Shown: positions 10,092 to 29,832 of the stretch, piece after piece
Layout: each line of letters starts with the position of its first letter
Position numbering within the stretch: the first letter of the stretch is position 1
Assembly (NCBI RefSeq): GCF_011045215.1
Contig: NZ_CP049201.1
Direction: 5' to 3' (one strand)
DNA: 64,000 nucleotides
Origin: Escherichia coli
GTDB taxonomy: Bacteria; Pseudomonadota; Gammaproteobacteria; Enterobacterales; Enterobacteriaceae
The notes under the pieces: generated by a model
What the model was told of the DNA's origin: nothing
What the model saw: only the letters and a program-made list of their open reading frames with translations
The model's database searches: none
Position numbers and translations under genes: made by a program

Positions 10092-10103
10092 TACGAGGCA
10101 TTC

Positions 10104-11259: not shown

Positions 11260-12059
11260 AAGATTTCATCACCGAAGCATGGCTAAGAGCGAACCATACG
11301 CTCAGCGAAGGCGCAGAGATCCATCTCCCTGCGGACAGTCGCCTGACGCCCTCTGCCCGGGAGTTACTGGAAAGCCGCCATCTGCGCATCAAGTTTATTG
11401 ACGAGCAGGGCCGCCTGTTTGTTGACGATGAGCAGCAGCAGCCACAGCCCGTTCACGGGCTGACCAGTAGCGATGAACATCCGCAGGCGTGCTGCGAACT
11501 GTGCCGCCAGCCGGTGGCAAAAAAGCCGGATACGCTGACTCATCTGTCGGCGGAAAAAATGGTTGCCAAAAGCGATCCGCGTCTGGGTTTTCGCGCGGTT
11601 CTCGACAGCACCATTGCGCTGGCTGTGTGGCTGCAAATTGAACTGGCGGAACCGTGGCAGCCGTGGCTGGCGGATATCCGTTCGCGTCTTGGCAACATTA
11701 TGCGTGCCGATGCGCTGGGGGAACCGCTGGGCGATCAAGCGATTGTCGGGCTTTCTGACGAAGATCTGCATCGGCTTTCTCACCAGCCGCTGCGCTATCT
11801 CGACCACGATCATCTGGTGCCGGAAGCCAGCCACGGGCGCGATGCTGCGTTGCTCAATCTGCTACGCACCAAAGTGCGGGAAACCGAAACCGTAGCGGCG
11901 CAGGTGTTTATCACCCGCAGCTTTGAAGTATTACGCCCGGACATCTTGCAGGCGCTGAACCGCCTTTCGAGCACGGTCTACGTGATGATGATCCTGAGCG
12001 TAACGAAGCAGCCGCTAACGGTGAAGCAGATCCAACAACGACTGGGGGAAACGCAATGA
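11256..12059 (+). CDS. eutT: Ethanolamine utilisation cobalamin adenosyltransferase EutT
   Basis: 267-aa ORF, 4-nt overlap with eutQ; eut operon synteny. Confidence 0.85.
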
Positions 12060-13072: not shown

Positions 13073-13110
13073 ACGGTCCCGTTCTGGACCCTGATAAAGA
13101 GGAAAGCACA

Positions 13111-13404
13111 ATGGAAGCATTAGGAATGATCGAAACCCGGGGCCTGGTTGCACTGATTGAGGCTTCTGACGCGATGGTGAAAGCTGCGCGCGTCAAGCTG
13201 GTTGGTGTTAAGCAGATTGGCGGCGGCCTGTGTACTGCCATGGTTCGTGGTGATGTTGCAGCCTGTAAAGCGGCGACCGATGCCGGTGCCGCAGCGGCAC
13301 AGCGTATCGGCGAGCTGGTATCTGTACACGTTATCCCGCGTCCGCACGGCGACCTGGAAGAAGTGTTCCCGATCGGCCTGAAAGGCGATAGCAGCAACCT
13401 GTAA
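13111..13404 (+). CDS. eutM: Major BMC shell protein EutM
   Basis: 97-aa product from internal ATG ([26 protein letters not shown]...); canonical BMC-H domain. Confidence 0.9.
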
Positions 13405-13510
13405 TCACCCTGTGTGACGTCGATTCGGGCGTCACGCTCTCTCATTTTTCATTTTACCTTCCGCGGAGGGTAGGGGGAGCTTTTACCTGAAATACGCCAC
13501 GGAGGCGGGT

Positions 13511-13798
13511 ATGAAACTGGCAGTCGTCACTGGACAAATTGTTTGTACCGTACGCCATCACGGACTGGCGCATGACAAATTGCTGATGGTGGAAATGATT
13601 GATCCACAAGGTAATCCTGACGGGCAATGCGCCGTCGCCATCGACAATATTGGCGCGGGAACCGGGGAGTGGGTGTTACTGGTGAGTGGCAGTTCCGCCC
13701 GCCAGGCGCATAAAAGCGAAACGTCACCGGTCGATCTGTGCGTGATTGGCATTGTCGATGAGGTGGTGTCTGGCGGTCAGGTAATTTTCCACAAATAA
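13511..13798 (+). CDS. eutN: BMC vertex (pentamer) protein EutN
   Basis: 95-aa ORF MKLAVVTGQIVCTVRH...; EutN/CcmL family. Confidence 0.9.
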   Translation: MKLAVVTGQIVCTVRHHGLAHDKLLMVEMIDPQGNPDGQCAVAIDNIGAGTGEWVLLVSGSSARQAHKSETSPVDLCVIGIVDEVVSGGQVIFHK

Positions 13799-13809
13799 GG
13801 CAGAACATC

Positions 13810-15213
13810 ATGAATCAACAGGATATTGAACAGGTGGTGAAAGCGGTACTGCTGAAAATGCAAAGCAGTGACACGCCGCCCGCCGCCGTTCATGAGATGG
13901 GCGTTTTCGCGTCCCTGGATGACGCTGTTGCGGCAGCCAAAATTGCCCAGCAAGGGTTAAAGAGCGTGGCAATGCGCCAGTTAGCCATTGCTGCCATTCG
14001 TGAAGCAGGCGAAAAACACGCCAGAGATTTAGCGGAACTTGCCGTCAGTGAAACCGGCATGGGTCGCGTTGAAGATAAATTTGCCAAAAACGTCGCTCAG
14101 GCACGCGGCACGCCAGGCGTTGAGTGTCTCTCTCCGCAAGTGCTGACGGGCGACAACGGCCTGACTTTAATTGAAAACGCGCCATGGGGCGTGGTGGCTT
14201 CGGTGACGCCGTCCACTAACCCGGCGGCAACCGTAATTAATAACGCCATCAGCCTGATTGCCGCGGGCAACAGCGTCATTTTTGCCCCGCATCCGGCGGC
14301 GAAAAAAGTCTCCCAGCGGGCGATCACGCTGCTCAACCAGGCGATTGTTGCCGCAGGCGGGCCGGAAAACTTACTGGTTACTGTGGCAAATCCGGATATC
14401 GAAACCGCGCAACGCTTGTTCAAGTTTCCGGGTATCGGCATGCTGGTGGTGACCGGCGGCGAAGCGGTAGTAGAAGCGGCGCGTAAACACACCAATAAAC
14501 GTCTGATTGCCGCAGGCGCTGGCAACCCGCCGGTAGTGGTGGATGAAACCGCTGACCTCGCCCGTGCTGCTCAGTCCATCGTCAAAGGCGCGTCTTTCGA
14601 TAACAACATCATTTGTGCCGACGAAAAGGTACTGATTGTTGTTGATAGCGTAGCCGATGAACTGATGCGTCTGATGGAAGGCCAGCACGCGGTGAAACTG
14701 ACCGCAGAACAGGCGCAGCAGCTGCAACCGGTGTTGCTGAAAAATATCGACGAGCGCGGAAAAGGCACCGTCAGCCGTGACTGGGTTGGTCGCGACGCAG
14801 GCAAAATCGCGGCGGCAATCGGCCTTAAAGTTCCGCAAGAAACGCGCCTGCTGTTTGTGGAAACCACCGCAGAACATCCGTTTGCCGTGACTGAACTGAT
14901 GATGCCGGTGTTGCCCGTCGTGCGCGTCGCCAACGTGGCGGATGCCATTGCGCTAGCGGTGAAACTGGAAGGCGGTTGCCACCACACGGCGGCAATGCAC
15001 TCGCGCAACATCGAAAACATGAACCAGATGGCGAATGCTATTGATACCAGCATTTTCGTTAAGAACGGACCGTGCATTGCCGGGCTGGGGCTGGGCGGGG
15101 AAGGCTGGACCACCATGACCATCACCACGCCAACCGGTGAAGGGGTAACCAGCGCGCGTACGTTTGTCCGTCTGCGTCGCTGTGTATTAGTCGATGCGTT
15201 TCGCATTGTTTAA
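13810..15213 (+). CDS. eutE: Acetaldehyde dehydrogenase (CoA-acylating) EutE
   Basis: 467-aa aldehyde dehydrogenase family ORF in eut operon. Confidence 0.9.
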   Translation: MNQQDIEQVVKAVLLKMQSSDTPPAAVHEMGVFASLDDAVAAAKIAQQGLKSVAMRQLAIAAIREAGEKHARDLAELAVSETGMGRVEDKFAKNVAQARGTPGVECLSPQVLTGDNGLTLIENAPWGVVASVTPSTNPAATVINNAISLIAAGNSVIFAPHPAAKKVSQRAITLLNQAIVAAGGPENLLVTVANPDIETAQRLFKFPGIGMLVVTGGEAVVEAARKHTNKRLIAAGAGNPPVVVDETADLARAAQSIVKGASFDNNIICADEKVLIVVDSVADELMRLMEGQHAVKLTAEQAQQLQPVLLKNIDERGKGTVSRDWVGRDAGKIAAAIGLKVPQETRLLFVETTAEHPFAVTELMMPVLPVVRVANVADAIALAVKLEGGCHHTAAMHSRNIENMNQMANAIDTSIFVKNGPCIAGLGLGGEGWTTMTITTPTGEGVTSARTFVRLRRCVLVDAFRIV

Positions 15214-16060: not shown

Positions 16061-17237
16061 ATTGCAGACCGCGCTCTTTCAGGCGTTCGATACCCTGAAT
16101 CTGCAACGGGTAAAAACATTTAGCGTTCCACCGGTGACGCTTTGCGGTCCGGGCTCGGTGAGCAGTTGCGGACAGCAAGCGCAAACGCGTGGGCTGAAAC
16201 ATCTGTTCGTGATGGCAGACAGCTTTTTGCATCAGGCAGGGATGACCGCCGGGCTGACGCGTAGCCTGGCCGTTAAAGGTATCGCCATGACGCTCTGGCC
16301 ATGTCCGGTGGGCGAACCGTGCATTACCGACGTGTGTGCAGCCGTGGCGCAGTTGCGTGAGTCAGGTTGTGACGGGGTGATCGCATTTGGCGGCGGCTCG
16401 GTGCTGGATGCGGCGAAAGCCGTGGCGTTGCTGGTGACGAACCCGGATAGCACGCTGGCAGAGATGTCAGAAACCAGCGTTCTGCAACCGCGCTTGCCGC
16501 TGATTGCCATTCCAACTACCGCCGGAACCGGCTCTGAAACCACCAATGTAACGGTGATTATCGACGCGGTGAGCGGGCGCAAGCAGGTGTTAGCCCATGC
16601 CTCGCTGATGCCGGATGTGGCGATCCTCGACGCCGCATTGACCGAAGGTGTGCCGTCGCATGTCACGGCGATGACCGGCATTGATGCGTTAACCCATGCC
16701 ATTGAAGCATACAGCGCCCTGAACGCTACACCGTTTACCGACAGTCTGGCGATTGGTGCCATTGCGATGATTGGCAAATCGCTGCCGAAAGCGGTGGGCT
16801 ACGGTCACGACCTTGCCGCGCGCGAGAGCATGTTGCTGGCTTCATGTATGGCGGGAATGGCGTTTTCCAGTGCGGGTCTTGGGTTGTGCCACGCGATGGC
16901 GCATCAGCCGGGCGCGGCGCTGCATATTCCGCACGGTCTCGCGAACGCTATGTTGCTGCCAACGGTGATGGAGTTTAACCGGATGGTTTGTCGTGAACGC
17001 TTTAGTCAGATTGGTCGGGCACTGCGAACTAAAAAATCCGACGATCGTGACGCTATTAACGCGGTAAGTGAGCTGATTGCGGAAGTTGGGATTGGTAAAC
17101 GACTGGGCGATGTTGGCGCGACATCTGCGCATTACGGTGCATGGGCGCAGGCCGCGCAGGAAGATATTTGTCTGCGCAGCAACCCGCGTACCGCCAGCCT
17201 GGAGCAGATTGTCGGCCTGTACGCAGCGGCGCAATAA
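16050..17237 (+). CDS. eutG: Alcohol dehydrogenase EutG (iron-containing ADH family)
   Basis: 395-aa product from ATG at 16050 (MQNELQTALF...); Fe-ADH motifs; overlaps eutJ end. Confidence 0.85.
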   Translation: MQNELQTALFQAFDTLNLQRVKTFSVPPVTLCGPGSVSSCGQQAQTRGLKHLFVMADSFLHQAGMTAGLTRSLAVKGIAMTLWPCPVGEPCITDVCAAVAQLRESGCDGVIAFGGGSVLDAAKAVALLVTNPDSTLAEMSETSVLQPRLPLIAIPTTAGTGSETTNVTVIIDAVSGRKQVLAHASLMPDVAILDAALTEGVPSHVTAMTGIDALTHAIEAYSALNATPFTDSLAIGAIAMIGKSLPKAVGYGHDLAARESMLLASCMAGMAFSSAGLGLCHAMAHQPGAALHIPHGLANAMLLPTVMEFNRMVCRERFSQIGRALRTKKSDDRDAINAVSELIAEVGIGKRLGDVGATSAHYGAWAQAAQEDICLRSNPRTASLEQIVGLYAAAQ

Positions 17238-17420
17238 ATGCCGGATGCGACGCTTGCCGCGTCTTATCCGGCCTACGGGATTGCACATGTAGAGCGGATA
17301 AAGCGTTCACGCCGCATCCGCCAGTGGCGCGGTGCAATTGCCGGATGCGACGCTTGCCGCGTCTTATCCGGCCTACGGGATTGCACATGTAGTGCGGATA
17401 AGGCTTCACGCCGCATCCGC
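17238..17420. repeat. BIME/REP cluster (two near-identical ~85-bp units)
   Basis: Unit gccggatgcgacgcttgccgcgtcttatccggcctacgggattgcacatgtag...gcggataa..cacgccgcatccgc present twice between eutG and eutH. Confidence 0.7.
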
Positions 17421-17452
17421 TAATAAATAACAACTAACAGGGAGTAAAGGCG

Positions 17453-18679: not shown

Positions 18680-20079
18680 ACACTCGCCAGCTACTGAGCG
18701 TCGGTATCGATATCGGCACTACCACCACCCAGGTGATTTTCTCCCACCTGGAACTGGTTAACCGTGCGGCGGTGTCGCAGGTGCCGCGCTACGAATTCAT
18801 CAAACGCGAAATTAGCTGGCAAAGCCCGGTGTTCTTTACCCCTGTCGATAAACAGGGTGATTTAAAAGAAGCGGAACTGAAATCGCTGATTTTAGAGCAA
18901 TATCAGGCTGCGGGCATTGCACCGGAAAGCGTTGATTCTGGTGCCATCATCATCACCGGTGAAAGCGCGAAAACCCGCAATGCTCGCCCGGCGGTGATGG
19001 CGCTCTCTCAGTCGCTGGGCGATTTTGTCGTTGCCAGCGCCGGGCCGCACCTCGAATCCGTGATCGCCGGTCACGGAGCCGGGGCACAAACCCTTTCTGA
19101 ACAACGGCTGTGTCGGGTACTGAATATCGACATCGGCGGTGGCACCGCGAACTACGCCCTGTTCGATGCCGGAAAAATCAGCGGCACTGCCTGCCTCAAC
19201 GTCGGTGGTCGCCTGCTGGAAACCGACAGCCAGGGGCGCGTGGTTTACGCTCATAAACCGGGGCAGATGATTGTGGATGAGTGCTTCGGCGCAGGCACCG
19301 ACGCCCGTTCGCTGACCGGCGCGCAGCTGGTGCAGGTTACCCGGCGGATGGCAGAGCTGATTGTCGAAGTGATTGACGGAACGCTCTCGCCGCTCGCGCA
19401 GGCATTGATGCAAACCGGTTTGCTGCCCGCAGGTGTTACGCCCGAAATCATTACGCTTTCTGGCGGCGTGGGCGAATGTTATCGCCACCAGCCCGCCGAC
19501 CCGTTCTGTTTTGCCGATATTGGCCCGCTTCTGGCAACGGCGCTGCATGACCATCCGCGCCTGCGTGAGATGAACGTGCAGTTTCCGGCGCAAACCGTGC
19601 GTGCCACGGTGATTGGCGCGGGGGCACATACCCTTTCGCTCTCTGGCAGCACAATCTGGCTTGAGGGCGTACAACTGCCGCTGCGCAATTTGCCGGTGGC
19701 GATCCCGATTGATGAAACGGATCTGGTGAGTGCCTGGCAACAGGCGCTGATTCAACTGGATCTTGATCCCAAAACTGACGCGTACGTGCTGGCGCTTCCC
19801 GCCTCGCTGCCTGTGCGTTACGCCGCGGTACTGACGGTCATCAACGCGTTGGTCGATTTCGTCGCGCGTTTTCCGAATCCGCATCCCCTGCTGGTGGTGG
19901 CCGGGCAGGACTTTGGTAAAGCTCTGGGCATGTTGTTGCGCCCACAGCTACAACAACTCCCGTTGGCAGTCATTGACGAAGTGATTGTCCGCGCGGGGGA
20001 CTATATCGACATTGGTACGCCTCTTTTTGGCGGATCGGTTGTGCCGGTGACGGTGAAATCACTCGCATTTCCTTCCTGA
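18676..20079 (+). CDS. eutA: Ethanolamine ammonia-lyase reactivase EutA
   Basis: 467-aa ORF, 4-nt overlap with eutH; eut operon synteny; followed by the inserted element. Confidence 0.9.
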   Translation: MNTRQLLSVGIDIGTTTTQVIFSHLELVNRAAVSQVPRYEFIKREISWQSPVFFTPVDKQGDLKEAELKSLILEQYQAAGIAPESVDSGAIIITGESAKTRNARPAVMALSQSLGDFVVASAGPHLESVIAGHGAGAQTLSEQRLCRVLNIDIGGGTANYALFDAGKISGTACLNVGGRLLETDSQGRVVYAHKPGQMIVDECFGAGTDARSLTGAQLVQVTRRMAELIVEVIDGTLSPLAQALMQTGLLPAGVTPEIITLSGGVGECYRHQPADPFCFADIGPLLATALHDHPRLREMNVQFPAQTVRATVIGAGAHTLSLSGSTIWLEGVQLPLRNLPVAIPIDETDLVSAWQQALIQLDLDPKTDAYVLALPASLPVRYAAVLTVINALVDFVARFPNPHPLLVVAGQDFGKALGMLLRPQLQQLPLAVIDEVIVRAGDYIDIGTPLFGGSVVPVTVKSLAFPS

Positions 20080-20172
20080 ATACTGTAGTTATCAGGCGTG
20101 GCGCTGGGTTGCGGGGTGTTAGTGGGATTATATCCGGCTGTGTATCCGGTCGGGGTGATTGGTCTGTATAGC

Positions 20173-20194
20173 AAAACCCGGCGCGGGGCCGGGT
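20173..20194 (-). terminator. Intrinsic terminator (minus-strand orientation)
   Basis: On minus strand reads ACCCGGCCCCGCGCCGGGTTTT: GC stem CCCGGC/GCCGGG followed by U-run, 7 nt after stop of the 20201-20761 gene; identical copy at 21822-21843. Confidence 0.6.
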
Positions 20195-20200
20195 GAACTA

Positions 20201-20761
20201 TCATTCAGGGAACAAGTTGATTTGAAGCAAACTGCCAATGTATTTACCAGTGCTTTTAATTTTTCGCTTTGATGGCTTACACGAATTCAGGTTGACACCA
20301 GCCTGGCTAGATATTGGCTTGTATTGCCGCTCCGCCAGTACGATCAGGTCTGCCGCGTCTTTTAGCTTTCCATCGTTAGCCAGTTCCAATGCTCGATCCG
20401 CCATTTGCCCGCATTGTTGAATCAGCTTAAGTTGCGATACCTCCAGTCGCAATTGCTGGATTCGTTCTACCACTTTCGCCCTAATGCGCTTAGTTTCACG
20501 CATTCCCATTCTTAATGCCTGGTTGCCAGTAAGTGAGTAAACCTCTTTTTCTTTCCTGAAGTTTGCGGCTTTACCGTCAGCTTGGACGCGCATTTTATGC
20601 GCTTCCAAGAATTCGCCCTCCAATTCATCCCTGATCTTCGCGTTGAATCTGTCGTTCTTGAGTTCATTTAACCCTTCCGCCTTGCGGATCTGGTTGATTA
20701 ACTCCAACAATTCATCACTGCGGATACGCCACTCGCTATCAACCTGTACCAAGTCAAACAT
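20201..20761 (-). CDS. Hypothetical phage protein (186 aa from ATG with GGGAG RBS; coiled-coil, possibly regulatory)
   Basis: ORF with good RBS upstream of internal ATG at 20761 (track start 20854 is TTG); no confidently recognised domain. Confidence 0.55.
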   Translation of the reverse strand: MFDLVQVDSEWRIRSDELLELINQIRKAEGLNELKNDRFNAKIRDELEGEFLEAHKMRVQADGKAANFRKEKEVYSLTGNQALRMGMRETKRIRAKVVERIQQLRLEVSQLKLIQQCGQMADRALELANDGKLKDAADLIVLAERQYKPISSQAGVNLNSCKPSKRKIKSTGKYIGSLLQINLFPE

Positions 20762-20924
20762 GTTGTTGCTCCCGTTTTGCTGCCATAGGGCAACGGCTCG
20801 CCAGCCTTTATCACCTCCTTTAGTTGTTGCGATTCTTAACTGAATGGTTATCAAAACGCTGCGTTAATATCATTGATATGTATCAAATTTGTTTTGTGAC
20901 GCGACAATGCCTTGTGAATATCAA

Positions 20925-20949
20925 TAAAAAACCCAGCGCTATGGCTGGG
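20925..20949 (-). terminator. Intrinsic terminator (minus-strand orientation)
   Basis: Minus strand CCCAGCcatagcGCTGGG followed by UUUUUU, 45 nt downstream of stop of 20995-21723 gene. Confidence 0.5.
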
Positions 20950-20994
20950 CTTCTCTTGATGGCTGGTTTTGTAGCTAATCGTTGGCTTTAAGGG

Positions 20995-21723
20995 TTAAGC
21001 AACAATATTAATCCCGCTCCTTGTCGCTGCCTCTTTGGCAATTTTCCCCTCGTCCTCCAGTTTAGCTAACGCCTTGTACATCCAGTGGCGGCCCGGTGCG
21101 CCATGCAGCTTGCCATCTTTGCCGATCTTACCGAACGCATGTAACGCCAAATCGTCGATAGTCCCCTTGTATCCGCCTTGCTCCTTAAGCCATTGCTCAA
21201 GCTGTTCTACTTTGAATTTTGCCGGACGTCCGCCAGCCGCTTTTTGTTGTTTAGCTGGTTCTTCTGCAATATCGCTTTTGTTGTTTAAGTCCGTCATGAC
21301 TGGTTCTCCTACAATAGCGTCGCCCTTGGTCTCGATTTGTTGATTAACTGGTTTGTCTACAATATCGATTTTGTTGTTTAGCTGGTTTTTCAACATATCA
21401 ATCTCAGCCTTTAGCGCCTCGTTTTCTCTGGCTAGTTCTTCGCAACGCTTGATAAATTTTTGTTCCATGCCGTCCGGGCTATCAACGTGCGCCGTACCCA
21501 TTACGATCTTCCCGTTGCTATCGAAGATGACAGCTTGCCAACCGACTGCGGCGAGCATTTTAAACACATCATCAGCGGTCTTGTTTGTTGTATCGCGACG
21601 CCCTTTAAACTTGTGGCTAGCAGCGCCTTTGCCTTTGAAGCCCATTGCCTCAGCGACATCTTGCCGCGTCATCTTGCGAGCGCGCTTGTTCATGCCTAAC
21701 TCAACCCAATCCATGTATTCCAT
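20995..21723 (-). CDS. Hypothetical phage protein with internal tandem peptide repeats (242 aa)
   Basis: ORF with GAGGT RBS; DNA and protein contain imperfect tandem repeats (LNNKIDIVDKPVNQQ / LNNKSDIAEEPAKQQ); basic N-terminal region possibly DNA-binding. Confidence 0.6.
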   Translation of the reverse strand: MEYMDWVELGMNKRARKMTRQDVAEAMGFKGKGAASHKFKGRRDTTNKTADDVFKMLAAVGWQAVIFDSNGKIVMGTAHVDSPDGMEQKFIKRCEELARENEALKAEIDMLKNQLNNKIDIVDKPVNQQIETKGDAIVGEPVMTDLNNKSDIAEEPAKQQKAAGGRPAKFKVEQLEQWLKEQGGYKGTIDDLALHAFGKIGKDGKLHGAPGRHWMYKALAKLEDEGKIAKEAATRSGINIVA

Positions 21724-21821
21724 ACATTACCTCATTTTGTCGCTAAACGTTTTGCTTTCTAATTTATCAACAAAAAAGCGGGTGATGGTAGCCGCTTTGA
21801 TGGGGAAGTTGACAGGGATCA

Positions 21822-21843
21822 AAAACCCGGCGCGGGGCCGGGT
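21822..21843 (-). terminator. Intrinsic terminator (minus-strand orientation), identical copy of 20173-20194
   Basis: Same 22-bp sequence aaaacccggcgcggggccgggt; 18 nt downstream of stop of AlpA-like gene 21861-22091. Confidence 0.6.
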
Positions 21844-21860
21844 ATTAGCAAGTTAGATGA

Positions 21861-22091
21861 TTACTGGGTATCGCTGTCAGAAAGTAGTCCAATTGATTTA
21901 AAGAATTTCATCACATCCTGATAGCGATACATGACGCCCCGCCCGGTTCCCAGCACATCAACAGGGTCGGGGAATGGAGTTCCGTTCTGTTCCCATTTCT
22001 TACGCCACGAATAAAACGTTCCCCTGCTAATTCCGCCCAGCATCCGGCAGATGGCAGGGCGGCTAAGAAGGATTACTTCATTTTTATCCAT
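21861..22091 (-). CDS. AlpA-family phage transcriptional regulator / excisionase-like HTH protein (76 aa)
   Basis: Motif LSRPAICRMLGGISRGTFYSWRKK...FPDPV typical of AlpA/Xis-type HTH; GGGAGA RBS. Confidence 0.6.
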   Translation of the reverse strand: MDKNEVILLSRPAICRMLGGISRGTFYSWRKKWEQNGTPFPDPVDVLGTGRGVMYRYQDVMKFFKSIGLLSDSDTQ

Positions 22092-22110
22092 TGTTTAATC
22101 TCCCGTGTGT

Positions 22111-22299
22111 TTATTTTGCGTAGATTAAGGCAAATGCTCTTTTGGCTTTGCTTAGTTCGTATTCGCGTTTTTCTATGATTGCCATCAGTTCTTGTGCGGT
22201 GGCTGGCACGCCCGCTCTTATCAGCGCAATCTTAGTATCCATAGCGCACACTCTTTCACGCACCATATCGAAGATAATTTCCGCTCTATCGTGTTTCAT
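22111..22299 (-). CDS. Small hypothetical protein (62 aa)
   Basis: ORF with strong GAGGTGA RBS 5 nt upstream of ATG; 19 bp upstream of AlpA-like gene, likely co-transcribed. Confidence 0.5.
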   Translation of the reverse strand: MKHDRAEIIFDMVRERVCAMDTKIALIRAGVPATAQELMAIIEKREYELSKAKRAFALIYAK

Positions 22300-22648
22300 G
22301 ATTTCACCTCATATTTGTTGCTAAACCTTGTAAACCCTTGTTTGACTACAAAATACACCTGGTTAAGCGACTGATAAAATGATTTAGGTCAATTTATTGG
22401 TTGATGATTTATGTCTGATTGGATTTGTCTACAAATGGCAGGTTAGTCAACAAATGATGAAACCAGGGAATGGCGGTTATAATGTCAGCGGGGATTGTGA
22501 GAAAGGCCCGGGTAGGTTGCTAACTGCCTGGGCCTTTATTTTTGGCGCGTGTACGTGAAATCTGGAAAATTTGCAGGGTAGTTGTTGAGGGATTTTTCGC
22601 GTAGGAGCGTGAAGGGTCCGCCAGTCATCGCCCTGACGTAGCGGTGAA

Positions 22649-23050
22649 TTACTTGCGAGGCTCACCCATCGGCCAGGCACCTTCATTGCGACGATAACCA
22701 ATCCGGTACTCTTCCGGCAGCGGCAAGCCCTGCTCACGATATGGACGCAGATCGAAGCCAAAAACAGGATCGTCGTCGTAGGCGAGGAATAGCCCGGCAG
22801 GCTCTGCCACGCGTTCGATAATCAGTTCCCCATCTTCAACGAAGAAGATCAGATTATCGCGAAAGTCCGTTACCTCACTGACGTGATAACATTCGGCATG
22901 TGCGTCCAGCCAGGCTTCTCGGTATTCCTGAATCTCGGCTTCTGACCATGTTGAAACAGGACGCTCCCAAATTCCCAGGCTGGATTTGCCCTGGCGGGAG
23001 AATAATTTTGCCTCTTTGCTCTGCTCTGGTTTTCTGTTTAAAAAGCTCAT
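22649..23050 (-). CDS. Hypothetical protein (133 aa)
   Basis: ORF with AAGGAGAA RBS; no recognised domain. Confidence 0.55.
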   Translation of the reverse strand: MSFLNRKPEQSKEAKLFSRQGKSSLGIWERPVSTWSEAEIQEYREAWLDAHAECYHVSEVTDFRDNLIFFVEDGELIIERVAEPAGLFLAYDDDPVFGFDLRPYREQGLPLPEEYRIGYRRNEGAWPMGEPRK

Positions 23051-23186
23051 TATTCTTCTCCTTTGAACGGATTGTTCTTGCTCTCTAATAACTTAGCGCG
23101 ACCCAGTAACGTCCGGGCAAGCGCCTCCGCCTTCCTTAGCCTAAGCCCTGCGTCTTCTGCGTCCAGATCTACATTCCTGATAGCCT

Positions 23187-23450
23187 CTACAGCCTGCTCC
23201 GCTGCGTCCGGGCGTGAATCCACTTAAATATGCCGATATGCTCACGAAAGTCTGGATGCTCATATTGCCAGCGGCAGATTGTTCTGAAGCTCGGCATGTC
23301 AGGCATGTTGCCAATCTCTCTGAGACTATGGCCTTCAGCTACCAGCAAGCAGATTTCTTCAGCGATAGCGACCCCATACTTAGCGCTTTTTCTGCTTAAA
23401 CTTGTGACATCAACAGGTAAGTTATTGATTTCTTTATCATCACCCTTCAT
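23187..23450 (-). CDS. Small HTH protein resembling the DNA-binding domain of phage terminase small subunits (87 aa)
   Basis: Motif AEGHSLREIGNMPDMPSFRTICRWQYEHPDFRE resembles TerS-type HTH; GGGGGTAA RBS; family assignment is from memory and tentative. Confidence 0.4.
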   Translation of the reverse strand: MKGDDKEINNLPVDVTSLSRKSAKYGVAIAEEICLLVAEGHSLREIGNMPDMPSFRTICRWQYEHPDFREHIGIFKWIHARTQRSRL

Positions 23451-23525
23451 AATTACCCCCGAATTGATAGCGAATTGATAGCGAATTACCCCGAATTACC
23501 CCCGAATTACCCCCGAATCACCATC
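23451..23525. repeat. Tandem array of about 6.5 copies of an 11-bp unit (AATTACCCC(C)G x4 and AATTGATAGCG x2)
   Basis: Directly visible: aattaccccc g aattgatagc g aattgatagc g aattacccc g aattaccccc g aattaccccc g aatcaccatc, exactly filling the gap between the 93-aa gene stop and the 87-aa gene start. Confidence 0.85.
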
Positions 23526-23527
23526 AT

Positions 23528-23809
23528 TTAACCCTCGCCTACGTCTGCGTCGATGCTTGCTAACTGGCTGTGTAGATCGCGTTCAATCATTTTTACCTTT
23601 TTCACAAAATCCCTTTCCTCGGCGGTGGCGGGCGCGCCCTGGGCTATGTTTTTCGTGAGGTCGTGGAAAGTGCCGAAAACATAAAGGGAGAACAGCCTTA
23701 ATTGTTGCCGCTTCATTGGCAAATCACTGTTGCTATGTTTGATCTCAGCGACGCCTTTCGAAATAACACGGGCCATCCCATGACAAATTCTTAACGTAAG
23801 CGCAGACAT
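23528..23809 (-). CDS. Hypothetical protein (93 aa)
   Basis: ORF with GGGGAG RBS; no recognised domain. Confidence 0.5.
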   Translation of the reverse strand: MSALTLRICHGMARVISKGVAEIKHSNSDLPMKRQQLRLFSLYVFGTFHDLTKNIAQGAPATAEERDFVKKVKMIERDLHSQLASIDADVGEG

Positions 23810-23930
23810 GATATTTACTCCCCGACTGGTATAATGAACGTGGTTTTAAACGTTGCTATTTGCTAACCATTTAATCTGTTAACTCAATTTCGCATTGTTG
23901 GCCCGGCACGAACACCGGGCTTTTCTTTAC

Positions 23931-24272
23931 CTATTCGAAATAGCTTCCAATATCCGGTGTCCGGGTATCAGTTTTCCGGGTCGGCTCGAAGTACGATTCC
24001 AGATCCGGCGTTTTCGGCCCACGCTGGGCGTTGGCGGCGGGTTGCTTTTCTTCTGGCTGTTCCGGCTGTTTACTACCAAATCGGCGCTCCAGTTGGTCCA
24101 TCAGCACTACCATCATTTCCTGGACCAGCTTTTCATCGGCTTTATCAAGGTTCTCCAATACCATCGCCATCCCTTTGCGGAATTTAAGCTCAGCGTCGTC
24201 CGGTTCCGGTGCTGATTCGTTTGCTTTAACTGCCAGGGCGATCCGGCGTTTTGCTTCATCCAAAAAATTCAT
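23931..24272 (-). CDS. Hypothetical acidic protein ending in repeated SYFE motif (113 aa)
   Basis: ORF with GGGGGAA RBS overlapping stop of upstream gene; C-terminus ...DLESYFEPTRKTDTRTPDIGSYFE. Confidence 0.5.
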   Translation of the reverse strand: MNFLDEAKRRIALAVKANESAPEPDDAELKFRKGMAMVLENLDKADEKLVQEMMVVLMDQLERRFGSKQPEQPEEKQPAANAQRGPKTPDLESYFEPTRKTDTRTPDIGSYFE

Positions 24273-24277
24273 TTTGT

Positions 24278-24721
24278 TTATTCCCCCATGTGGAAATAGT
24301 CATCTAAGCGGCGATTAAACTCGTCGCTGCCATCGAAATATTCACGGATACTTTTATTGACCAGATCATCACCGTCGAAATACTGGCGCGTGAAATCGTC
24401 CAATTCCCCATCGAAGTATTGACGTGTGAAATCGTCTAATTCCCCTTCAAAATATTGACGCGCATCAGGCGCTCTGTTTGGCGCTGTAGCAATCTCAGAT
24501 TGATTGCCCTGTAACTTATCGACGTTTGCTAAATACACGCCCAGTGAGCTGTTTGTTCCCATTACCGCAAGCATTTTCCGGCGATCTGCCATGTTCGGCG
24601 CGAGCGATGATAATTGAGCTTTAATTTTGTCCACTTCCTGATTAACAATACGGTCAATCAGTGGTTGATTCGTGCGAATAATTTCCTGTGCCAACTGGCG
24701 AATATATTCTTTGCGTGTCAT
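24278..24721 (-). CDS. Hypothetical protein with C-terminal tandem RQYF(D/E)GELDDFT repeats (147 aa)
   Basis: ORF with GGAGAT RBS; encoded by about 3.5 tandem 36-bp DNA repeats near 24330-24465. Confidence 0.55.
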   Translation of the reverse strand: MTRKEYIRQLAQEIIRTNQPLIDRIVNQEVDKIKAQLSSLAPNMADRRKMLAVMGTNSSLGVYLANVDKLQGNQSEIATAPNRAPDARQYFEGELDDFTRQYFDGELDDFTRQYFDGDDLVNKSIREYFDGSDEFNRRLDDYFHMGE

Positions 24722-24739
24722 TTCTTATCTCCGTTCATC

Positions 24740-25123
24740 TCATTTCTGTAAAAAACCCATACCGTGGCCCAGGCGATTTGAAATTTTCCCGGCAAGCATC
24801 CGGCGAATATGTTTTTCGTTGATGATGTCGTGAGTGACCGGATCTTCACCTTTCATACATTCCGGCATCTGGTCAAACAATACGGAAGCGCCTTCATCAA
24901 TAATCTCAGTTAAGACTGCTGGCAGCATATTAATGATGCGTTCTGCTTCGTCGTTCATTGCTTTATCGAACGCTTTTTTATCCATTGCTTCGGCGGATGG
25001 TTTGTAATTGTCGCCAGTCAGGTTAAGGTAAGTGTTGTTTGGGTGATACATGGCATTCACTCCTTTTACTTTGATTGTTGCGATTTCTTTGTTTTTGTTA
25101 ATTGTGGTGCCTTTGACTTTCAT
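24740..25123 (-). CDS. Hypothetical protein (127 aa)
   Basis: ATG overlaps stop of HNH gene (ATGA), suggesting translational coupling; no recognised domain. Confidence 0.5.
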   Translation of the reverse strand: MKVKGTTINKNKEIATIKVKGVNAMYHPNNTYLNLTGDNYKPSAEAMDKKAFDKAMNDEAERIINMLPAVLTEIIDEGASVLFDQMPECMKGEDPVTHDIINEKHIRRMLAGKISNRLGHGMGFLQK

Positions 25124-25539
25124 GCTGCTTCTTCCTTCAATAATTGTGGCAATTTGCCTGTTAGTTCGATTTCTTCATTAATAGATGCAAGTAACTGTCT
25201 CAGTTTGCGATGTAATAGCTGGTGACGCTCTCTCGGCATTTTTACCAGGTTGCTTAAGCGGTTATTCTGCGGATCGTAGTCCCGGTGATGGATATCATAT
25301 TTTCGCTCATCGTAAACACCGTAGCACCATAACCAGGCAGCCTTTTCTATTGTCATGCAGGTACGTTTTCCGTTGCTTAAACAAATGGTTATACTCAGGT
25401 GACCGCGATGTTTTTCGTTTAAGCTGCCTTTAATTACCTGGCCTGTGCTGCGGTTGTGAAATAAACCAGTTTCAGGGTCGTAGTGATATTTCTGTCGTAA
25501 TATATCAACTGATAACCGTAGTCTTGTAAGATTGTCCAT
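25120..25539 (-). CDS. HNH homing-type endonuclease (139 aa)
   Basis: Motif YDIHHRDYDPQNNRLSNLVKMPRERHQ (HH...N...N...H) typical of phage HNH nucleases; GAGGTAG RBS. Confidence 0.7.
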   Translation of the reverse strand: MDNLTRLRLSVDILRQKYHYDPETGLFHNRSTGQVIKGSLNEKHRGHLSITICLSNGKRTCMTIEKAAWLWCYGVYDERKYDIHHRDYDPQNNRLSNLVKMPRERHQLLHRKLRQLLASINEEIELTGKLPQLLKEEAA

Positions 25540-25571
25540 GATGTTCTACCTCAATGTGATTGCTGTGTTAA

Positions 25572-25757
25572 TTATCTTTCTTCTTGTGGCCTATTCAGCC
25601 AGGCCTCGATCTCGCTACGCCAGAATAATAAACGACAATTTCGCGGCGTAAATGGTTGGGGTATTGTCTTATCTTTTAATAGCCATCTTCGAATCGTTCT
25701 TGTTGATACCCCCGCTATTAATGCGAAAGCTCGCAGATCTATAACTTCATCTCTCAT
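25572..25757 (-). CDS. AlpA-like HTH regulator (61 aa from ATG with GAGGT RBS)
   Basis: Sequence LIAGVSTRTIRRWLLKDKTIPQPF...WRSEIEAWL matches AlpA/Xis-type HTH pattern; track ORF start 25862 is a TTG extension. Confidence 0.55.
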   Translation of the reverse strand: MRDEVIDLRAFALIAGVSTRTIRRWLLKDKTIPQPFTPRNCRLLFWRSEIEAWLNRPQEER

Positions 25758-26537
25758 GTTCTTACCTCGATTAAAAAGGACCGCCCCCAGGGAAAGAAGA
25801 AAGAGGAAAGAGGAAAGAGGAAAAACTTCCTGGAGGCGGGTAATTCGGATTCCTTGAATCAATATCCCATGTGATACTTAATATTATAAAGGGCGGCGGG
25901 CTATGTCGCTATTTTTGCCATAGTGTGACACCATTAATTTATTAACAAAAAGTGCTATTTATTAAATCTTTTTTCGGCAGGTGCAAGAAAAATAATTGCG
26001 ACACGGTAGGGTAGCGGGCGATAATAATCATGTAAGGAGTAGCCACCTTACGCCTCCAAATGTGATCGATAAAAATAATAGTCTCAATTCTTTCTCCCGC
26101 TTCTCGGCGGTTTTTTTGCCTGCAATCACACATCAAAAAAACACATCGAATTGATATGCCTTTAAAACGCAATATAACGCATTTTGACGGCCTTAATTTT
26201 TGCCTATCCACTCGGAAGCGTAAGCCTGTTTTGATTCGTCTGGCGTGGAATGGTGCGGCGGTAATATCAGATCTCAGCGTTCTGTGTGGTGGGATGGAAT
26301 AGCCTGGCAGGATCTGCGTGTGATTTCATTCATCCAACCTTGGATGAATGGTCCGATCTGGTCAGTAGTCCGGCACAAATAAAAAGCGCCTGCGGGCGTA
26401 GCAGACGCTTTGTGTACAGGCTTATCAGTACGGGATGTGCACGAATGATTATACCACCCTCAGAAAAACGTTTGCTTTTGCACTTAAACGGATAAGTGGT
26501 ATTTCTTGGTCTTCATTGGTTTTAGCTCACCATAGGC

Positions 26538-26765
26538 TCATTTAGGTGCGCCCCTGTCGATAATTCGGTACATGTTCTCGGTATATCTCCCGTTAATCAC
26601 CGTTCTGGTAACAACAATCACACCGTTTTCCTCCAGAAAGGCAATGGCCCGCTTCACTCCCTGGCGGCTTACACCGGATAGCTGCGCCAGCCTGTCAATG
26701 GAGATGTTGTATTTGTCCGGCTGGCTTGTCAGGATCTGGAATACCGCTCGTGCTGTTTTCGTCAT
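26538..26765 (-). CDS. Small winged-helix DNA-binding protein (75 aa), candidate regulator
   Basis: Sequence ISIDRLAQLSGVSRQGVKRAIAFLEENGVIV has HTH character; divergent from the plus-strand cassette; RBS weak. Confidence 0.45.
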   Translation of the reverse strand: MTKTARAVFQILTSQPDKYNISIDRLAQLSGVSRQGVKRAIAFLEENGVIVVTRTVINGRYTENMYRIIDRGAPK

Positions 26766-27037
26766 GGCAAAAACTCATTGAAATTGGATACCCTTAGAAC
26801 GCTCTCAAACGCTCCGTAATGCGATGAGAATTTTACCTAAGCAAGTGTAGCTCTTTATTAGTTTTATGATGCCGTAGGCCGATAGAAGGTGCGCTCTCTG
26901 AAGTTTCATTGTCTATCAGTGGTGGGTAATGCTGCCTTTACTATTGGCGTCAAGAAAATCACTGGTGTAGATTGGGCGAATAGTTTACTATTCAAACAAG
27001 GCACAATGGCCTTAGCGGATTGATGTCAGGAGATACC

Positions 27038-27385
27038 ATGTCAAAAATAGTTACTTTGTTTGCGACTAAGCGAGAAGGGAAATCCCTTTCTGTGCGCACT
27101 CGTAAGCCAAAAGCTATGACTGGCTTGCGTAAAACAAATCGTCTGACGCATCTTGACGCGTTAGCGTATCGACTAGGATACCAGTTGGTGCGCGGTAAAA
27201 GTGTCATGTTTCGCTACACTGCTACTCTCGATCACGAAGAAAACAAAGTGATGAATGCGGCCTCGCCTATGGCTGTACCACGAGTAAAAAAAATGACGTT
27301 CACACAAGCGTGTGATTTATCAAAAGATTTATTCGATTCACGAGAAGAACGCTTAAAGAGTGTAAGCTTTGATGGTCCAGAATGA
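27038..27385 (+). CDS. Basic 115-aa protein, candidate partner (antitoxin or regulator) of downstream YafO-like gene
   Basis: ATG at 27038 preceded by AGGAGA RBS; stop overlaps start of next gene by 14 nt; basic N-terminus and acidic C-terminus; no recognised family. Confidence 0.5.
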   Translation: MSKIVTLFATKREGKSLSVRTRKPKAMTGLRKTNRLTHLDALAYRLGYQLVRGKSVMFRYTATLDHEENKVMNAASPMAVPRVKKMTFTQACDLSKDLFDSREERLKSVSFDGPE

Positions 27386-27887
27386 ATTTATTGGTAAGGT
27401 CTACAGTGATAACAAGTTTAAAACAAACGATGAATTAAAGAGCTTTAAGGATTCGTTTATTTATCATTGGAGATATGGACATCATCCTGATTTTGGAAAG
27501 GATACTCTTTTCCATAAACCCCCGTGTGTATATCCTATCCATTTACGTAAAGTCCATGTAAATATTGGTCTTTATACCAATCAGTACGGCTATAGCGGGA
27601 CAGAACAATGCTGGGATGACTGGTCTACTGGTCGTTATGGTCCCGGTGGTTTCGAAAAAGTTACCCCTACATCTGATGCTTATCTTATATACGCTGTATG
27701 TAAAAATAGAAATGCTGGCGTGTTAGACTTCTGGTTTCCTCCCGCACACAAAAACGCTGAGTTCGAATCCTCTGTACAGTTTGTGGCTGAGATGGCTGAT
27801 AAGTTTTATGAGTCTATCAAGGCGGACCCGATGCCGCGCGATCAGAATCCTTGGCATACGGGGTATATAGTTAAAAAACCAGCCTGA
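27372..27887 (+). CDS. YafO-family toxin-like protein (171 aa)
   Basis: Motifs F-I-Y-H-W-R-Y-G...PDFGKDTLF, YPIHLRKVHVN and SDAYLIYAV line up with recalled YafO motifs (FISYKRDG...PDIFGRDALY, ERVAHIHLAN, DEAHLVYCQG); similarity judged from memory, not computed. Confidence 0.45.
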   Translation: MVQNEFIGKVYSDNKFKTNDELKSFKDSFIYHWRYGHHPDFGKDTLFHKPPCVYPIHLRKVHVNIGLYTNQYGYSGTEQCWDDWSTGRYGPGGFEKVTPTSDAYLIYAVCKNRNAGVLDFWFPPAHKNAEFESSVQFVAEMADKFYESIKADPMPRDQNPWHTGYIVKKPA

Positions 27888-28438
27888 TCCACGCAATACT
27901 GATTGTTTTTGGCCTTGTATGGTGTGGTCTGATTTGAGGCAAAATTATTTAATCCCTTAAAAAACTAACTTCAAAAGACTAAAACCAGGGGGATGGTCCC
28001 TCTCGCTCCGCTCCAGGTACCATCCCTGTCGGGATGGGTTTATTGTAGAGTTAAAATTAATTACTCACATCGTCACACCTTGCGAAAGTTTTGCTCAATT
28101 ATCATTCAAACATAGCACAAAAAATATTCGATTTAGTTAGTGTGCACTGACTTTTTTATCAATTTACTTTCATTCGAAAGTCATGGGTTAAATATTAATC
28201 ATCTGGCTGTGGCACGCATGGATTCACCGAGGGTATTTTGGACCATTTGGTCAAAATTCATAAGTACATGATTTCATGGTGATTTATTTTTCTGTATCTT
28301 GCTTTCATTCGAAAGTGGAAACGAAGAATTGGCAATTTATTGATTCAGATCATTGACATTGCATATTTGTGGCGGTTGTCACGGTTGTTTTTTGAGCGCT
28401 TCAACCGTCGATATTGAGTATAAACCCGGCCTTATAGT

Positions 28439-29644
28439 TCACGGTTCAAGTGGATTACCGTCACCAGCCAATATTGAATCAATAGCGTCGGCGTAATCCT
28501 GCATCATTGCTCGCCGTTGCTTCAGGTAGGCCGCCTGGTTATAAACGCCGCGCACACCTTTCGGGACGTGGGCCAATTGGATTTCGATCCAGTCTGGTGA
28601 GTATCTGCCAGACTCATTAAGCGCCGTTGAAAAGGTGGTCCGCCAGCCATGACCAGTGGCAATGGATTTATAGCCGATCCTCTCAAGCGCCTTCAGTATC
28701 GCGCTGGCTGAAAGTGGCTTATCCATGAATCGACCAGGGAAGACGAAAGCACTGTATCCGCTCCTTGTAAACTGGTCCTGTAATAGCTCCACCGCCTGCC
28801 GTGATAGCGGGACCACATGCGGGCGGCGGGCCTTCATGACTTCAGCGGGCAATGTGATTGTTGCGTCCTCCAGGTTTATCCATTCCCAACGGCACAAACG
28901 CAGTTCTGCGGTCCTTAATGCCGTTAATATAAGCAAACGTATTGCCGTCTGAATCTGGACGCTCCCGGCCCTCTCAAGGGCTTTGTAGAAGGCCGGAATT
29001 TCACTAATCGGTATCCACGCGTTGTGACCAGGTCGGCGGGCCTTCAGTGCCGTATCAAGATCTGCAACCGGATTCCTCGTTACCAGTTCGGTGATAACGG
29101 CAAACTTGAAGATCTCACCGATGCGCTGGCGTAGCTTGCGGGCCTGCTCCGGTGCGGTACGTTCTTTCTTCTGGAGTAATGCCAGCACGTCACGGGCGGT
29201 TATATCGACAATCGACCGCTTGCCAAGTACCGGATAGACGTCTTTTTCTAGGGCCGATCTGACCTGTTTTGCATAGGATTCCGACCACCCTCCAACCCTA
29301 GTAGCAAACCAGTCTTCCGCCACCTTCTTAAATCCTGCCGCCATGTTGAGCGCATCAATGGCTTTTTCCTTGCGGGCTTGTTCCACTGGGTTAATTCCAT
29401 TGGCAATAAGGGATCTGCTCTCCGTGGCGCGCCTGCGTGCTTCTTTGAGTGTGATTAGCGGGTAAACACCAATAGCCTGCAAAAACTCTCGTTTATTCAA
29501 CCAATACCTGAATCGCCAGTATTTCGAACCGTTGGGATGCACCAGCAAAAACAGCCCCGGCGTCAGTGAATCGGTGAGTTTATAGGGCTTGTCCTGCGGC
29601 TGTGCGGCGTCTATGGCCTTTGCTGTGAGTGGTGTCTTGCTCAA
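28439..29644 (-). CDS. intZ: Tyrosine-type site-specific integrase (prophage integrase)
   Basis: 401-aa ORF with phage integrase features (N-terminal arm-binding domain, C-terminal catalytic region with ...HGWRTT...); sits at the element end beside eutB as intZ does in E. coli K-12; start appears to be TTG. Confidence 0.8.
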   Translation of the reverse strand: MSKTPLTAKAIDAAQPQDKPYKLTDSLTPGLFLLVHPNGSKYWRFRYWLNKREFLQAIGVYPLITLKEARRRATESRSLIANGINPVEQARKEKAIDALNMAAGFKKVAEDWFATRVGGWSESYAKQVRSALEKDVYPVLGKRSIVDITARDVLALLQKKERTAPEQARKLRQRIGEIFKFAVITELVTRNPVADLDTALKARRPGHNAWIPISEIPAFYKALERAGSVQIQTAIRLLILTALRTAELRLCRWEWINLEDATITLPAEVMKARRPHVVPLSRQAVELLQDQFTRSGYSAFVFPGRFMDKPLSASAILKALERIGYKSIATGHGWRTTFSTALNESGRYSPDWIEIQLAHVPKGVRGVYNQAAYLKQRRAMMQDYADAIDSILAGDGNPLEP

Positions 29645-29832
29645 AACCGGATACCTTGATTTAACGACTGGATAACCCCGATCATGTATCCGGCGCGTTC
29701 GGTTGCGTTCGGCAGGATAAGTAACGGGCGTATTAAGTGGAACACCTTACAGGACAAGGGCTAACGATGAAATAGAATTGTTTGCAGGCTGTGAGAAATG
29801 TTAATCGTCACTTCTTCCTGAGGGAACGACTT

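Follow-up and report, generated by a model that had tools for sequence, protein, structure and literature searches.

An AlpA-like candidate regulator and a candidate helper-phage-type excisionase in a CPZ-55/IntZ-type island of Escherichia coli

In EcCIMP1, a phage-inducible chromosomal island (PICI) of E. coli, alpA is the master regulator, and a second gene, alpA_1, encodes an excisionase (Xis)-like protein that substitutes for the Xis of the helper phage Kapi1 (Pick et al. 2025, PMC11773190). AlpA of Gram-negative PICIs is a helper-induced master activator that also activates itself (PMC6092414), and Vis of satellite P4 is an AlpA-like protein that serves as both recombination directionality factor (RDF) and regulator (PMC6092414). 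P4 also encodes the E protein (epsilon antirepressor) which, according to references given in PMC2995052, acts on the C repressor of phage P2 and derepresses the helper. For the K-12 element CPZ-55, long classed as a cryptic prophage, the insertion site and its 8-bp duplication (TCAGGAAG) have been published (PMC6379469). Here we describe a CPZ-55/IntZ-type integrative island at the eutA/eutB site of E. coli, found in a stretch of 64,000 nt from contig NZ_CP049201.1 (assembly GCF_011045215.1), hereafter the window, and two small proteins encoded in it that we call P1 and P2 (the phages of those names are always written as phage P1 and phage P2).

21861..22091, minus strand: P1, a MerR-like winged helix, last gene of the p62-P1 unit
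25572..25757, minus strand: P2, an HTH_17/AlpA-like winged helix, first gene of the long operon

We favor, with a probability of roughly 0.55, a reading in which P2 is the AlpA-like master regulator of the island and P1 a helper-type excisionase encoded beside an antirepressor-like gene. The reading is drawn from the fold and remote homology of the two proteins, from their conservation across related islands, and from the match of P1 to temperate phages of the mEp021 (mEpimmI) group, whose integrase types its alleles follow.

Family and fold of P1 and P2

A first-pass annotation of the sequence had proposed two AlpA/Xis-type helix-turn-helix (HTH) proteins here, and both open reading frames (ORFs) are indeed present and intact on the minus strand. 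P1 has 76 amino acids (aa), with an ATG at 22091 and GGGAG 8 nt upstream; P2 has 61 aa, with an ATG at 25757 after GAGGT, a start backed by the starts of its positional orthologues. Close homologues of P1 number 34. P2 of the window found no close match in a word-indexed search of a collection of 5.8 billion clusters, and an exhaustive profile search was therefore used for it; P2 and five positional orthologues as a profile retrieved 1339 proteins at E<=1e-3. The homologues and the ratio of nonsynonymous to synonymous substitution rates (dN/dS) of P1, together with the profile relatives of P2, indicate that both are more than chance ORFs.

Neither protein belongs to the AlpA family in the strict sense. 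PF05930 (Phage_AlpA) matches neither P1 nor P2 at E<=0.1, the gathering threshold being 21 bits and the K-12 AlpA control scoring 83.9 bits; the P2 orthologue in the closest relative, L001, reaches 15.2 bits. The earlier label holds for both proteins at the level of fold, and in a profile search, the check named with it, both fall outside the curated AlpA family. P1 matches HTH_23 with 28.9 bits (cutoff 24.6) and HTH_17 at just E 0.048, and P2 matches HTH_17 with 20.3 bits, below the family cutoff of 27. The HTH_23 match of P1 was rejected as an argument against an excisionase fold, as 26 of 59 small single-domain P2-like proteins match HTH_23 too, along with 53 that match HTH_17 and nine that match PF05930. 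Below threshold, NCBIfam links P1 to Gifsy-1 Xis (NF033499; 18.5 bits against a cutoff of 60) and P2 to the TIGR01764 excisionase domain, and in PHROGs P2 falls to phrog_66, 'excisionase and transcriptional regulator' (1.5e-7), and P1 to a 'DNA binding protein' family.

Profile-profile alignment (hhalign) joins the P2 family to K-12 AlpA over its full length (94.8%, E 5e-8, 56 columns) and the P1 family to the P2 family (93.5%, E 2e-7). A direct comparison of the P1 family with AlpA is not significant (8%, 23 columns), and the link of P1 to AlpA runs only via the P2/HTH_17 family. As pairwise BLASTP between P1 and P2 gives E 0.04, with homology at the profile-profile level only, the two are not the copies of one regulator that had been supposed. 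By sequence comparison they are remote relatives in the excisionase/AlpA/MerR-like superfamily, outside PF05930, and not recent duplicates.

AlphaFold (AF2) models of P1 (pLDDT 83.6) and P2 (pLDDT 85.9) both have the order beta-alpha1-alpha2-beta-(beta)-alpha3 of a winged helix, and the structural neighbors of both are excisionases, AlpA-named proteins, BldC, MerR N-domains and TerS DNA-binding domains. The top PDB match of P1 is the GIsul2 excisionase 8c3t (prob 0.96, TMt 0.70), deposited as 'AlpA family phage regulatory protein', with TorI, RdfS, BldC, gpNu1 and other TerS DNA-binding domains also among the matches; its best viral structure matches are proteins named excisionase, AlpA or PrtN. 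P2 is best matched by TerS DNA-binding domains, BldC, RdfS, phage P2 Cox and Pukovnik Xis. On these models we predict with good confidence that both proteins adopt the small MerR-like winged helix of excisionases and AlpA. The TerS DNA-binding domains and lambda gpNu1 among the matches of P1 (6hn7_B, 1j9i, 7lwr) could mean that P1 is a packaging-related DNA-binding protein with a gpNu1/TerS-type winged helix. These matches, however, share a generic MerR-like fold and rank under an excisionase, the phage homologues of P1 lie in the early-left operon beside int and far from the packaging genes, and the island has a separate terS-like gene, all of which makes a packaging role for P1 very improbable.

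P1 alleles, phage integrases and the P2 operon

P1 is present in six of the 12 island loci compared, each time with p62.

22111..22299, minus strand: p62, 62 aa, function unassigned, accompanying P1 in islands without exception
21825..21843, minus strand: intrinsic terminator shutting the p62-P1 unit, dG -13.3 kcal/mol

For p62 we found no family or phage match; where relatives have a P1 of just 56% identity, their p62 keeps 97-100%. Two island alleles of P1 occur, one of 76 aa (window) and one of 78 aa (L001-type), and they are 56% identical where the IntZ proteins of the same islands are 93% identical. The difference is confined to ~170 bp (21919-22087, codons 1-57), which is the phage-matched cassette. 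Upstream of it the p62 gene is 100% identical, and downstream the C-terminal codons and the terminator are ~90-100% identical (30-nt windows); the last ~19 P1 codons are island-specific and common to both island alleles.

Among 50,697 phage genomes, P1 matches ten records, the best being those of mEp021, mEp515 and mEp554 at 86.5% aa identity. The mEp021 protein, mEp021_02 (76 aa; 86.5% aa and 86% nt identity), is encoded by the last gene of the early-left operon, convergent with int and overlapping its 3' end, at the prophage end. The same int-overlapping arrangement is found in mEp044, MagusPhagus, Salmonella phage Oslo, where the homologue (L010 ~3001-3210) is unannotated, and Proteus phage Pm34. 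A P1 homologue is likewise convergent with int and overlaps it in a prophage that lies beside a PAS/GGDEF gene, as would be expected at ydaM, the site published for type I integrases (PMC11893012). Across these phages the identities of the Xis-like protein and of Int track one another (47/51%, 94/92% and 41-46/41-42%), the behavior expected of an RDF.

In the islands this co-variation breaks down. P1 of the window matches phages with a type I integrase (86%), and the 78-aa L001-type allele matches phages with a type II integrase (78-79%), while island IntZ is only 25-27% identical to these phage integrases. The P1 allele thus follows the phage integrase type and not the island integrase. P1 is under purifying selection: compared with island and phage copies its dN/dS is 0.11-0.15. 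The fusion of two ancestral elements that was suggested at first for the pair has no support; instead, sequence comparison makes the ~170-bp cassette for the DNA-binding part of P1 one that the island and mEp021-group (mEpimmI) temperate phages have swapped.

These patterns bear on the possibility of a classical division between Xis and AlpA in one element, with P1 as the island's own IntZ excisionase and P2 as a transcriptional activator. P1 has an excisionase-like fold, an excisionase as its top PDB match and a weak Gifsy-1 Xis profile match, and its C-terminal ~19 codons are island-specific in both island alleles; lambda Xis contacts Int through its C-terminal tail. However, P1 is missing from half of the relatives, although these have the same island ends and the same Int, at 90-93% identity, and with a presence in only six of 12 loci it cannot be the general RDF of IntZ. 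Its DNA-binding part does not co-vary with IntZ either, at 56% identity between alleles where IntZ keeps 93%, and fits two phage integrase types instead. Moreover, K-12 CPZ-55, which has neither P1 nor P2, still excises at low frequency (PMC3105296). A role of P1 as the excisionase of IntZ is therefore unlikely, and, from sequence, P1 is best read not as a second regulator of the island but as an excisionase of helper-phage type.

P2 is a core gene of the island. All 11 full-length relatives examined carry a P2-type gene, each time first in the operon; of the 12 loci, only the short K-12 CPZ-55 is without one. There are at least five P2-type alleles, 27-49% identical to the window copy (the nearest, at 49%, being the O157-type), where Int is 90-99% identical; P2 thus shows no co-variation with IntZ of the kind an RDF of IntZ would. 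No match to P2 was found among the 50,697 phage genomes. P2 keeps all family-invariant residues and shares with AlpA the pattern FP-x-P ... W/F ... E-I/V-x-x-W/F, and its recognition helix (xxRTIxRW) is fairly conserved across alleles. In RefSeq, P2-type genes are unannotated in L013 (9470-9646), L014 (~8971-9158) and the O157:H7 genome L015 (6155-6331). For annotation, this means that P2-type genes are missed in some genomes, O157:H7 included, and, if our reading is correct, that the labels 'AlpA family' and 'HTH domain protein' cover at least two functional classes.

The region upstream of P2 is also conserved in outline.

25883..25888, minus strand: -10 element TATAAT in TATAATATTAAGTATCA, putative P2/operon promoter with a weak -35, conserved in five allele types
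25773..25840, minus strand: leader hairpin (arms 25839-25829 and 25791-25781) with a CT-rich loop, then a T-run, directly before the P2 Shine-Dalgarno sequence

The weak -35 explains why the promoter is absent from the consensus scan list. In all P2 alleles the -10 element is followed by a leader of ~100 nt with the hairpin and T-run at its end (window 25773-25888; equivalents at L001 9307-9420, L002 10406-10520 and L005 7531-7650), with stems that vary and complementarity that is kept. That statement relies on per-allele folds, as a covariation analysis of seq­uences (seven, of ~5 alleles) suffered from ambiguous alignment and RNAalifold kept four pairs. The hairpin of the L001 type has -18.2 kcal/mol and z -6.8, and that of L002 z -3.3. 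The leader may act as an attenuator, or helper antitermination may target it. A nut site for a helper N-type protein was considered and rejected for it: the boxA of mEp021 nutL/nutR2 (GCTCTTTAAAAATCCGG) was recovered, while the island leaders are only loosely similar in some alleles and that of the window not at all. Likewise rejected was the idea that P2 acts on its leader terminator in the manner of the processive antiterminator AlpA of P. aeruginosa; that protein is Q-like, with its HTH at ~residues 128-142, and has the name alone in common (PMC9371919). The motif CGAATTACCC, with one copy upstream of P2 and three upstream of terS, was dismissed as a P2 operator, as the arrays follow the terS allele and the copy upstream of P2 is missing in relatives; it is more likely a TerS-related site.

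Terminator-like hairpins at 26411-26383, 22537-22502, 21843-21825, 20955-20926 and 20194-20176 split the genes into blocks, which agrees with the two separate modules and with the positions at the head or end of a block that had been proposed for the two genes: P2 is first in the long leftward operon, and P1 last in the p62-P1 unit, closed by the terminator at 21843-21825. Terminators that divide the blocks would also suit a scheme in which both proteins regulate island transcription, P2 for the packaging/structural operon and P1 for the left module (p242 and the Ant-like p217), as would the fact that members of the superfamily such as AlpA, Vis, PrtN and BldC are often transcription factors (PMC6092414). 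Yet P1, with a terminator directly behind it, heads no block; in prophages its closest relatives occupy the int end, and their sequence varies along with Int; and relatives without P1 retain the p242 and p217 genes. We regard transcriptional roles for both as rather unlikely.

In the mechanism that we propose instead, with P2 as master regulator and P1 as helper-type excisionase, the activities are predicted ones. By analogy with PICI AlpA, P2 would most likely switch on the long operon, with its HNH and terS-like genes and the neck and tape-measure genes of intact relatives, acting once transcription passes the leader after helper-phage activity. It would perhaps aid IntZ excision as well, as relatives such as P4 Vis do both. 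P1 would most likely act on the Int/attachment site (att) system of the helper phage rather than on IntZ. By doing so it could make a resident helper excise or keep an incoming one from integrating, and it may work together with the antirepressor-like p217. That P1 is a near-copy of the mEp021 excisionase candidate hints that the island manipulates its helper phage.

The island and its links to mEp021-type phages

The window is E. coli chromosome, with an eutH gene that is 100% identical to that of some strains. In it, eutE/J/G/H/A lie at 13.8-20.08 kb and eutB/C/L/K/R at 29.83-34.4 kb, and the gap between eutA and eutB is filled by a lower-GC island (GC 0.41-0.48 versus ~0.55-0.6 around). The island proper covers 20080-29821 (9.7 kb), with ends set by alignment with relatives at eutA/eutB and one relative in yghO. 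On the minus strand the gene order is int, wHTH75, P2, HNH, four small ORFs of unassigned function, terS-like, p133, p62, P1, p242 and p217.

20072..20079: left 8-bp att core/target duplication CTTCCTGA, containing the eutA stop codon; relatives at eutA/eutB and yghO have common ends
29814..29821: right att core copy CTTCCTGA, 12 nt upstream of the eutB start
28439..29644, minus strand: IntZ-type tyrosine integrase, P4-like with an arm-binding domain, 99% identical to K-12 IntZ
27020..27887, plus strand: accessory pair p121 and p172 (YafO-toxin-like), overlapping and adjoining int, the sole plus-strand island genes
26538..26765, minus strand: wHTH75, a 75-aa winged helix (HTH_11/HTH_36) like the N-terminal domain of phage replication initiators, with the terminator 26411-26383 behind it
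25120..25539, minus strand: HNH endonuclease, second gene of the long operon, from family profile matches
20995..21723, minus strand: p242, an HTH protein with its own terminator (20955-20926), labeled an XRE-family regulator in relatives by the Prokaryotic Genome Annotation Pipeline (PGAP)
20201..20854, minus strand: p217, antirepressor-like, last island gene, with matches to PHROG Ant families
20176..20194, minus strand: intrinsic terminator after the last island gene

The att site and 8-bp duplication are those published for K-12 CPZ-55. Related islands were found by megablast in 456 of 5426 complete E. coli genomes, and only one genome covers at least 80% of the window island, at 93.8% identity; the island family is thus common and highly mosaic. 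The closest relative, L001 (NZ_CM143725.1, island 1501-13965), sits in yghO and not at eutA/eutB, and its ends carry a short eut-derived core, which indicates that a ~12-kb unit moves whole and is able to use a second site. Of the accessory pair, p172 matches phrog_1651 (9e-43) and reaches 21.5 bits with the Pfam YafO_toxin profile, under the cutoff of 25, and PGAP names it a YafO-family toxin; the pair is probably accessory toxin-antitoxin or defense cargo. Pfam and phage searches gave no match for p242. Profile searches of the island proteins revealed no capsid, portal, TerL or lysis genes. Elsewhere in the window, the eutG-eutH intergenic region (~17060-17430) has overlapping ORFs that repeat one peptide (…CRMRRLPRLIRPTGLHM), suggesting tandem repeats of the repetitive extragenic palindromic (REP) or bacterial interspersed mosaic element (BIME) type, and 61915-62314 on the minus strand carries a tRNA gene cluster with tRNA-Lys(UUU) and three tRNA-Val(UAC).

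The long operon shows that this copy of the island has decayed in part.

23050..23450, minus strand: terS-like gene (Sf6_terminase/phrog_1482), disrupted by a 1-nt deletion near 23210
23451..23519, minus strand: phased 11-bp direct repeats directly upstream of the terS-like start, (AATTCGGGGGT)x3, (AATTCGCTATC)x2, AATTCGGGGGT
22502..22537: strong hairpin with a 14-bp stem, found in relatives where the long operon ends, just 3' of its tape-measure gene

Where three intact relatives have CACGCCCAGGACG, the window has CACGCCC-GGACG; the terS-like gene is an intact 133-aa ORF in L001, L004, L006 and L007. The repeat array, which may be a TerS-binding (pac-like) or autoregulatory site, varies in copy number among relatives with the same terS allele, and other terS alleles come with other repeats (GTTAGCG x4 in L002). 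A 2.49-kb tape-measure segment (L001 4112-6602) that most relatives have is cleanly gone at window 22300-22650. A tape-measure gene of its own is unusual for a 12-kb integrative island. With terS frameshifted and the tape-measure segment deleted, the window copy is probably not mobilizable, P1 and P2 being still intact.

Such losses could be taken to mean that the whole island is decaying, that recombination of the island with mEp-type prophages left the P1 cassette behind without a function, and that neither protein matters. The frameshifted terS-like gene and deleted tape-measure gene of the window, the highly mosaic nature of the family and the loss of both genes from K-12 CPZ-55 would agree with this. 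It is nevertheless distinctly unlikely, as purifying selection acts on P1 in islands and phages alike (dN/dS 0.09-0.15), two phage-matched P1 alleles are kept at one and the same place in the island, each with p62 as partner, and P2 keeps every family-invariant residue and has a confidently predicted fold.

Links to mEp021-type phages extend beyond P1. The N-terminal part of the terS-like protein resembles mEp021 TerS, the L002 gp10/Neck1-like protein is 45% identical to mEp021_59, and the 729-aa tape-measure protein of intact relatives (phrog_1538, 1e-105) is 60-65% identical at its ends to that of mEp021. A 22-nt terminator (AAAACCCGGCGCGGGGCCGGGT) with two exact copies in the island (20173-20194 and 21822-21843) is identical to TERM_5 of mEp021 (record 24296-24312), and for the terminator of the P1 unit the identity extends over 24-25 nt. 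In mEp021, TERM_5 lies just upstream of the holin gene and may be the 't5' terminator listed as experimentally demonstrated in the mEpimmI paper (PMC11893012). A 27-nt string, GCTTGGACGCGCATTTTATGCGCTTCC, with a small palindrome inside, is exactly shared between the p217 gene (20580-20606) and mEp021 (record 26738-26764), where it is non-coding and ~130 nt upstream of terS. It occurs in one p217 allele only, also at L001 2002 and in L013, and may mark a site for packaging or regulation or the scar of a recombination event. p217 itself is 37% identical over 116 aa to Ant1 of phage P1, and Ant proteins of Stx phages match it too.

From these links one may tentatively go further and propose that CPZ-55/IntZ-type islands are an unrecognized family of satellites of mEp021 (mEpimmI) phages, with a left end that is a helper-manipulation module made of an integrase-type-matched excisionase cassette and an antirepressor, although we consider this broader claim possible rather than probable. 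If true, the island could force a resident helper to excise and be derepressed, or stop an incoming helper from lysogenizing, and intact members would add terS-like, neck and tape-measure proteins of their own. K-12 CPZ-55 would then seem to be a decayed satellite rather than a decayed phage. The helper candidates are directly testable, as mEp021/mEp044 phages grow on K-12. For P1 and P2, the pair of regulators first proposed would become a division of labor, one protein running the island and the other targeting helper recombination. The match between the Xis cassette of an island and the integrase type of a helper would be a compact genomic signature of who parasitizes whom.

Several points weigh against P2 as master regulator with P1 as helper-type excisionase, or against the satellite proposal. 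Profile searches found no primase, helicase or initiator domain in the island proteins or in the extra ORFs of relatives, and a literature search on CPZ-55, intZ or eut-site elements as satellites, or on E. coli satellites with tape-measure genes, returned nothing relevant. The RDF role of mEp021_02 is itself proposed from position, co-variation and fold, and the mEpimmI paper (PMC11893012) nowhere uses the word excisionase. Helper phages already encode a P1-type protein, so the benefit of an island copy is not evident. No P1-type binding motif was identified that the mEp021 att arms have in common with any target, and the att arms of mEp021 and the island, compared by k-mers for candidate P1 sites, share 10- and 11-mers only at the level expected from shuffling. 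The island-specific C-terminal tail of P1 would fit a partner encoded by the island, IntZ for instance, and the P2 alleles, given their recognition helix, may have a common DNA target such as the IntZ att arms. Finally, the leader hairpin of the window itself has a loop lengthened by CT-rich repeats and a z-score that is not significant.

Comparison with known systems

The island has much in common with K-12 CPZ-55 (intZ, yffL-yffS), with which it shares an integrase that is 99% identical, the att site and the 8-bp duplication. K-12 CPZ-55 is shorter, however (6.8 kb), differently decayed and without P1- or P2-type genes, and only the terS-like gene (yffO) and a p93 fragment are recognizably common to both. 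Judged by what defines Gram-negative PICIs of 10-15 kb (Fillol-Salom 2018; PMC10111431), size, int, mostly unidirectional genes and the lack of capsid and lysis genes fit, whereas the AlpA-like gene lies away from int and outside PF05930, and in place of a pri-rep module there is just wHTH75.

The two proteins have separate closest counterparts. P2 is like AlpA of CP4-57 and Gram-negative PICIs (PF05930) in its small size, fold and sequence pattern, and in heading an island operon; unlike them, P2 has no PF05930 match, and its L001 orthologue scores under the threshold. P1 has the fold of the excisionases GIsul2 Xis (8c3t), TorI (1z4h), RdfS (8dgl), Pukovnik Xis (4j2n) and Gifsy-1 Xis, and, as with excisionases, its phage homologues adjoin int and co-vary with Int. 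In contrast to excisionases, its sequence similarity to them is marginal, and the island P1, at 6.3 kb from int, shows no co-variation with it. Satellite P4, like this island, combines an AlpA-like protein with an antirepressor, but p217 is unrelated in sequence to epsilon, the helper group is another, and the primase and capsid-size genes of P4 are absent here.

EcCIMP1 is the nearest parallel for the pair. Both are small satellites or satellite-like islands with two AlpA/Xis-type proteins of apparently distinct functions, the proven or candidate master regulator in the conserved regulatory position and the helper-Xis-like one at the far end. In EcCIMP1 both genes are annotated as AlpA family, while here neither P1 nor P2 reaches PF05930; alpA is directly beside int, while P2 is 2.7 kb from it; and alpA_1 is on the opposite strand, while P1 is co-oriented. 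EcCIMP1 also has a primase and the P22-like helper Kapi1, whereas no replication gene was found among the island proteins and the P1 alleles fit two integrase types of the mEp021 group. The arrangement of P1 and P2 is nonetheless best supported as a variant of that described for EcCIMP1, and if it is so, the single experimental precedent, EcCIMP1 alpA_1, would be extended to another and widespread island family.

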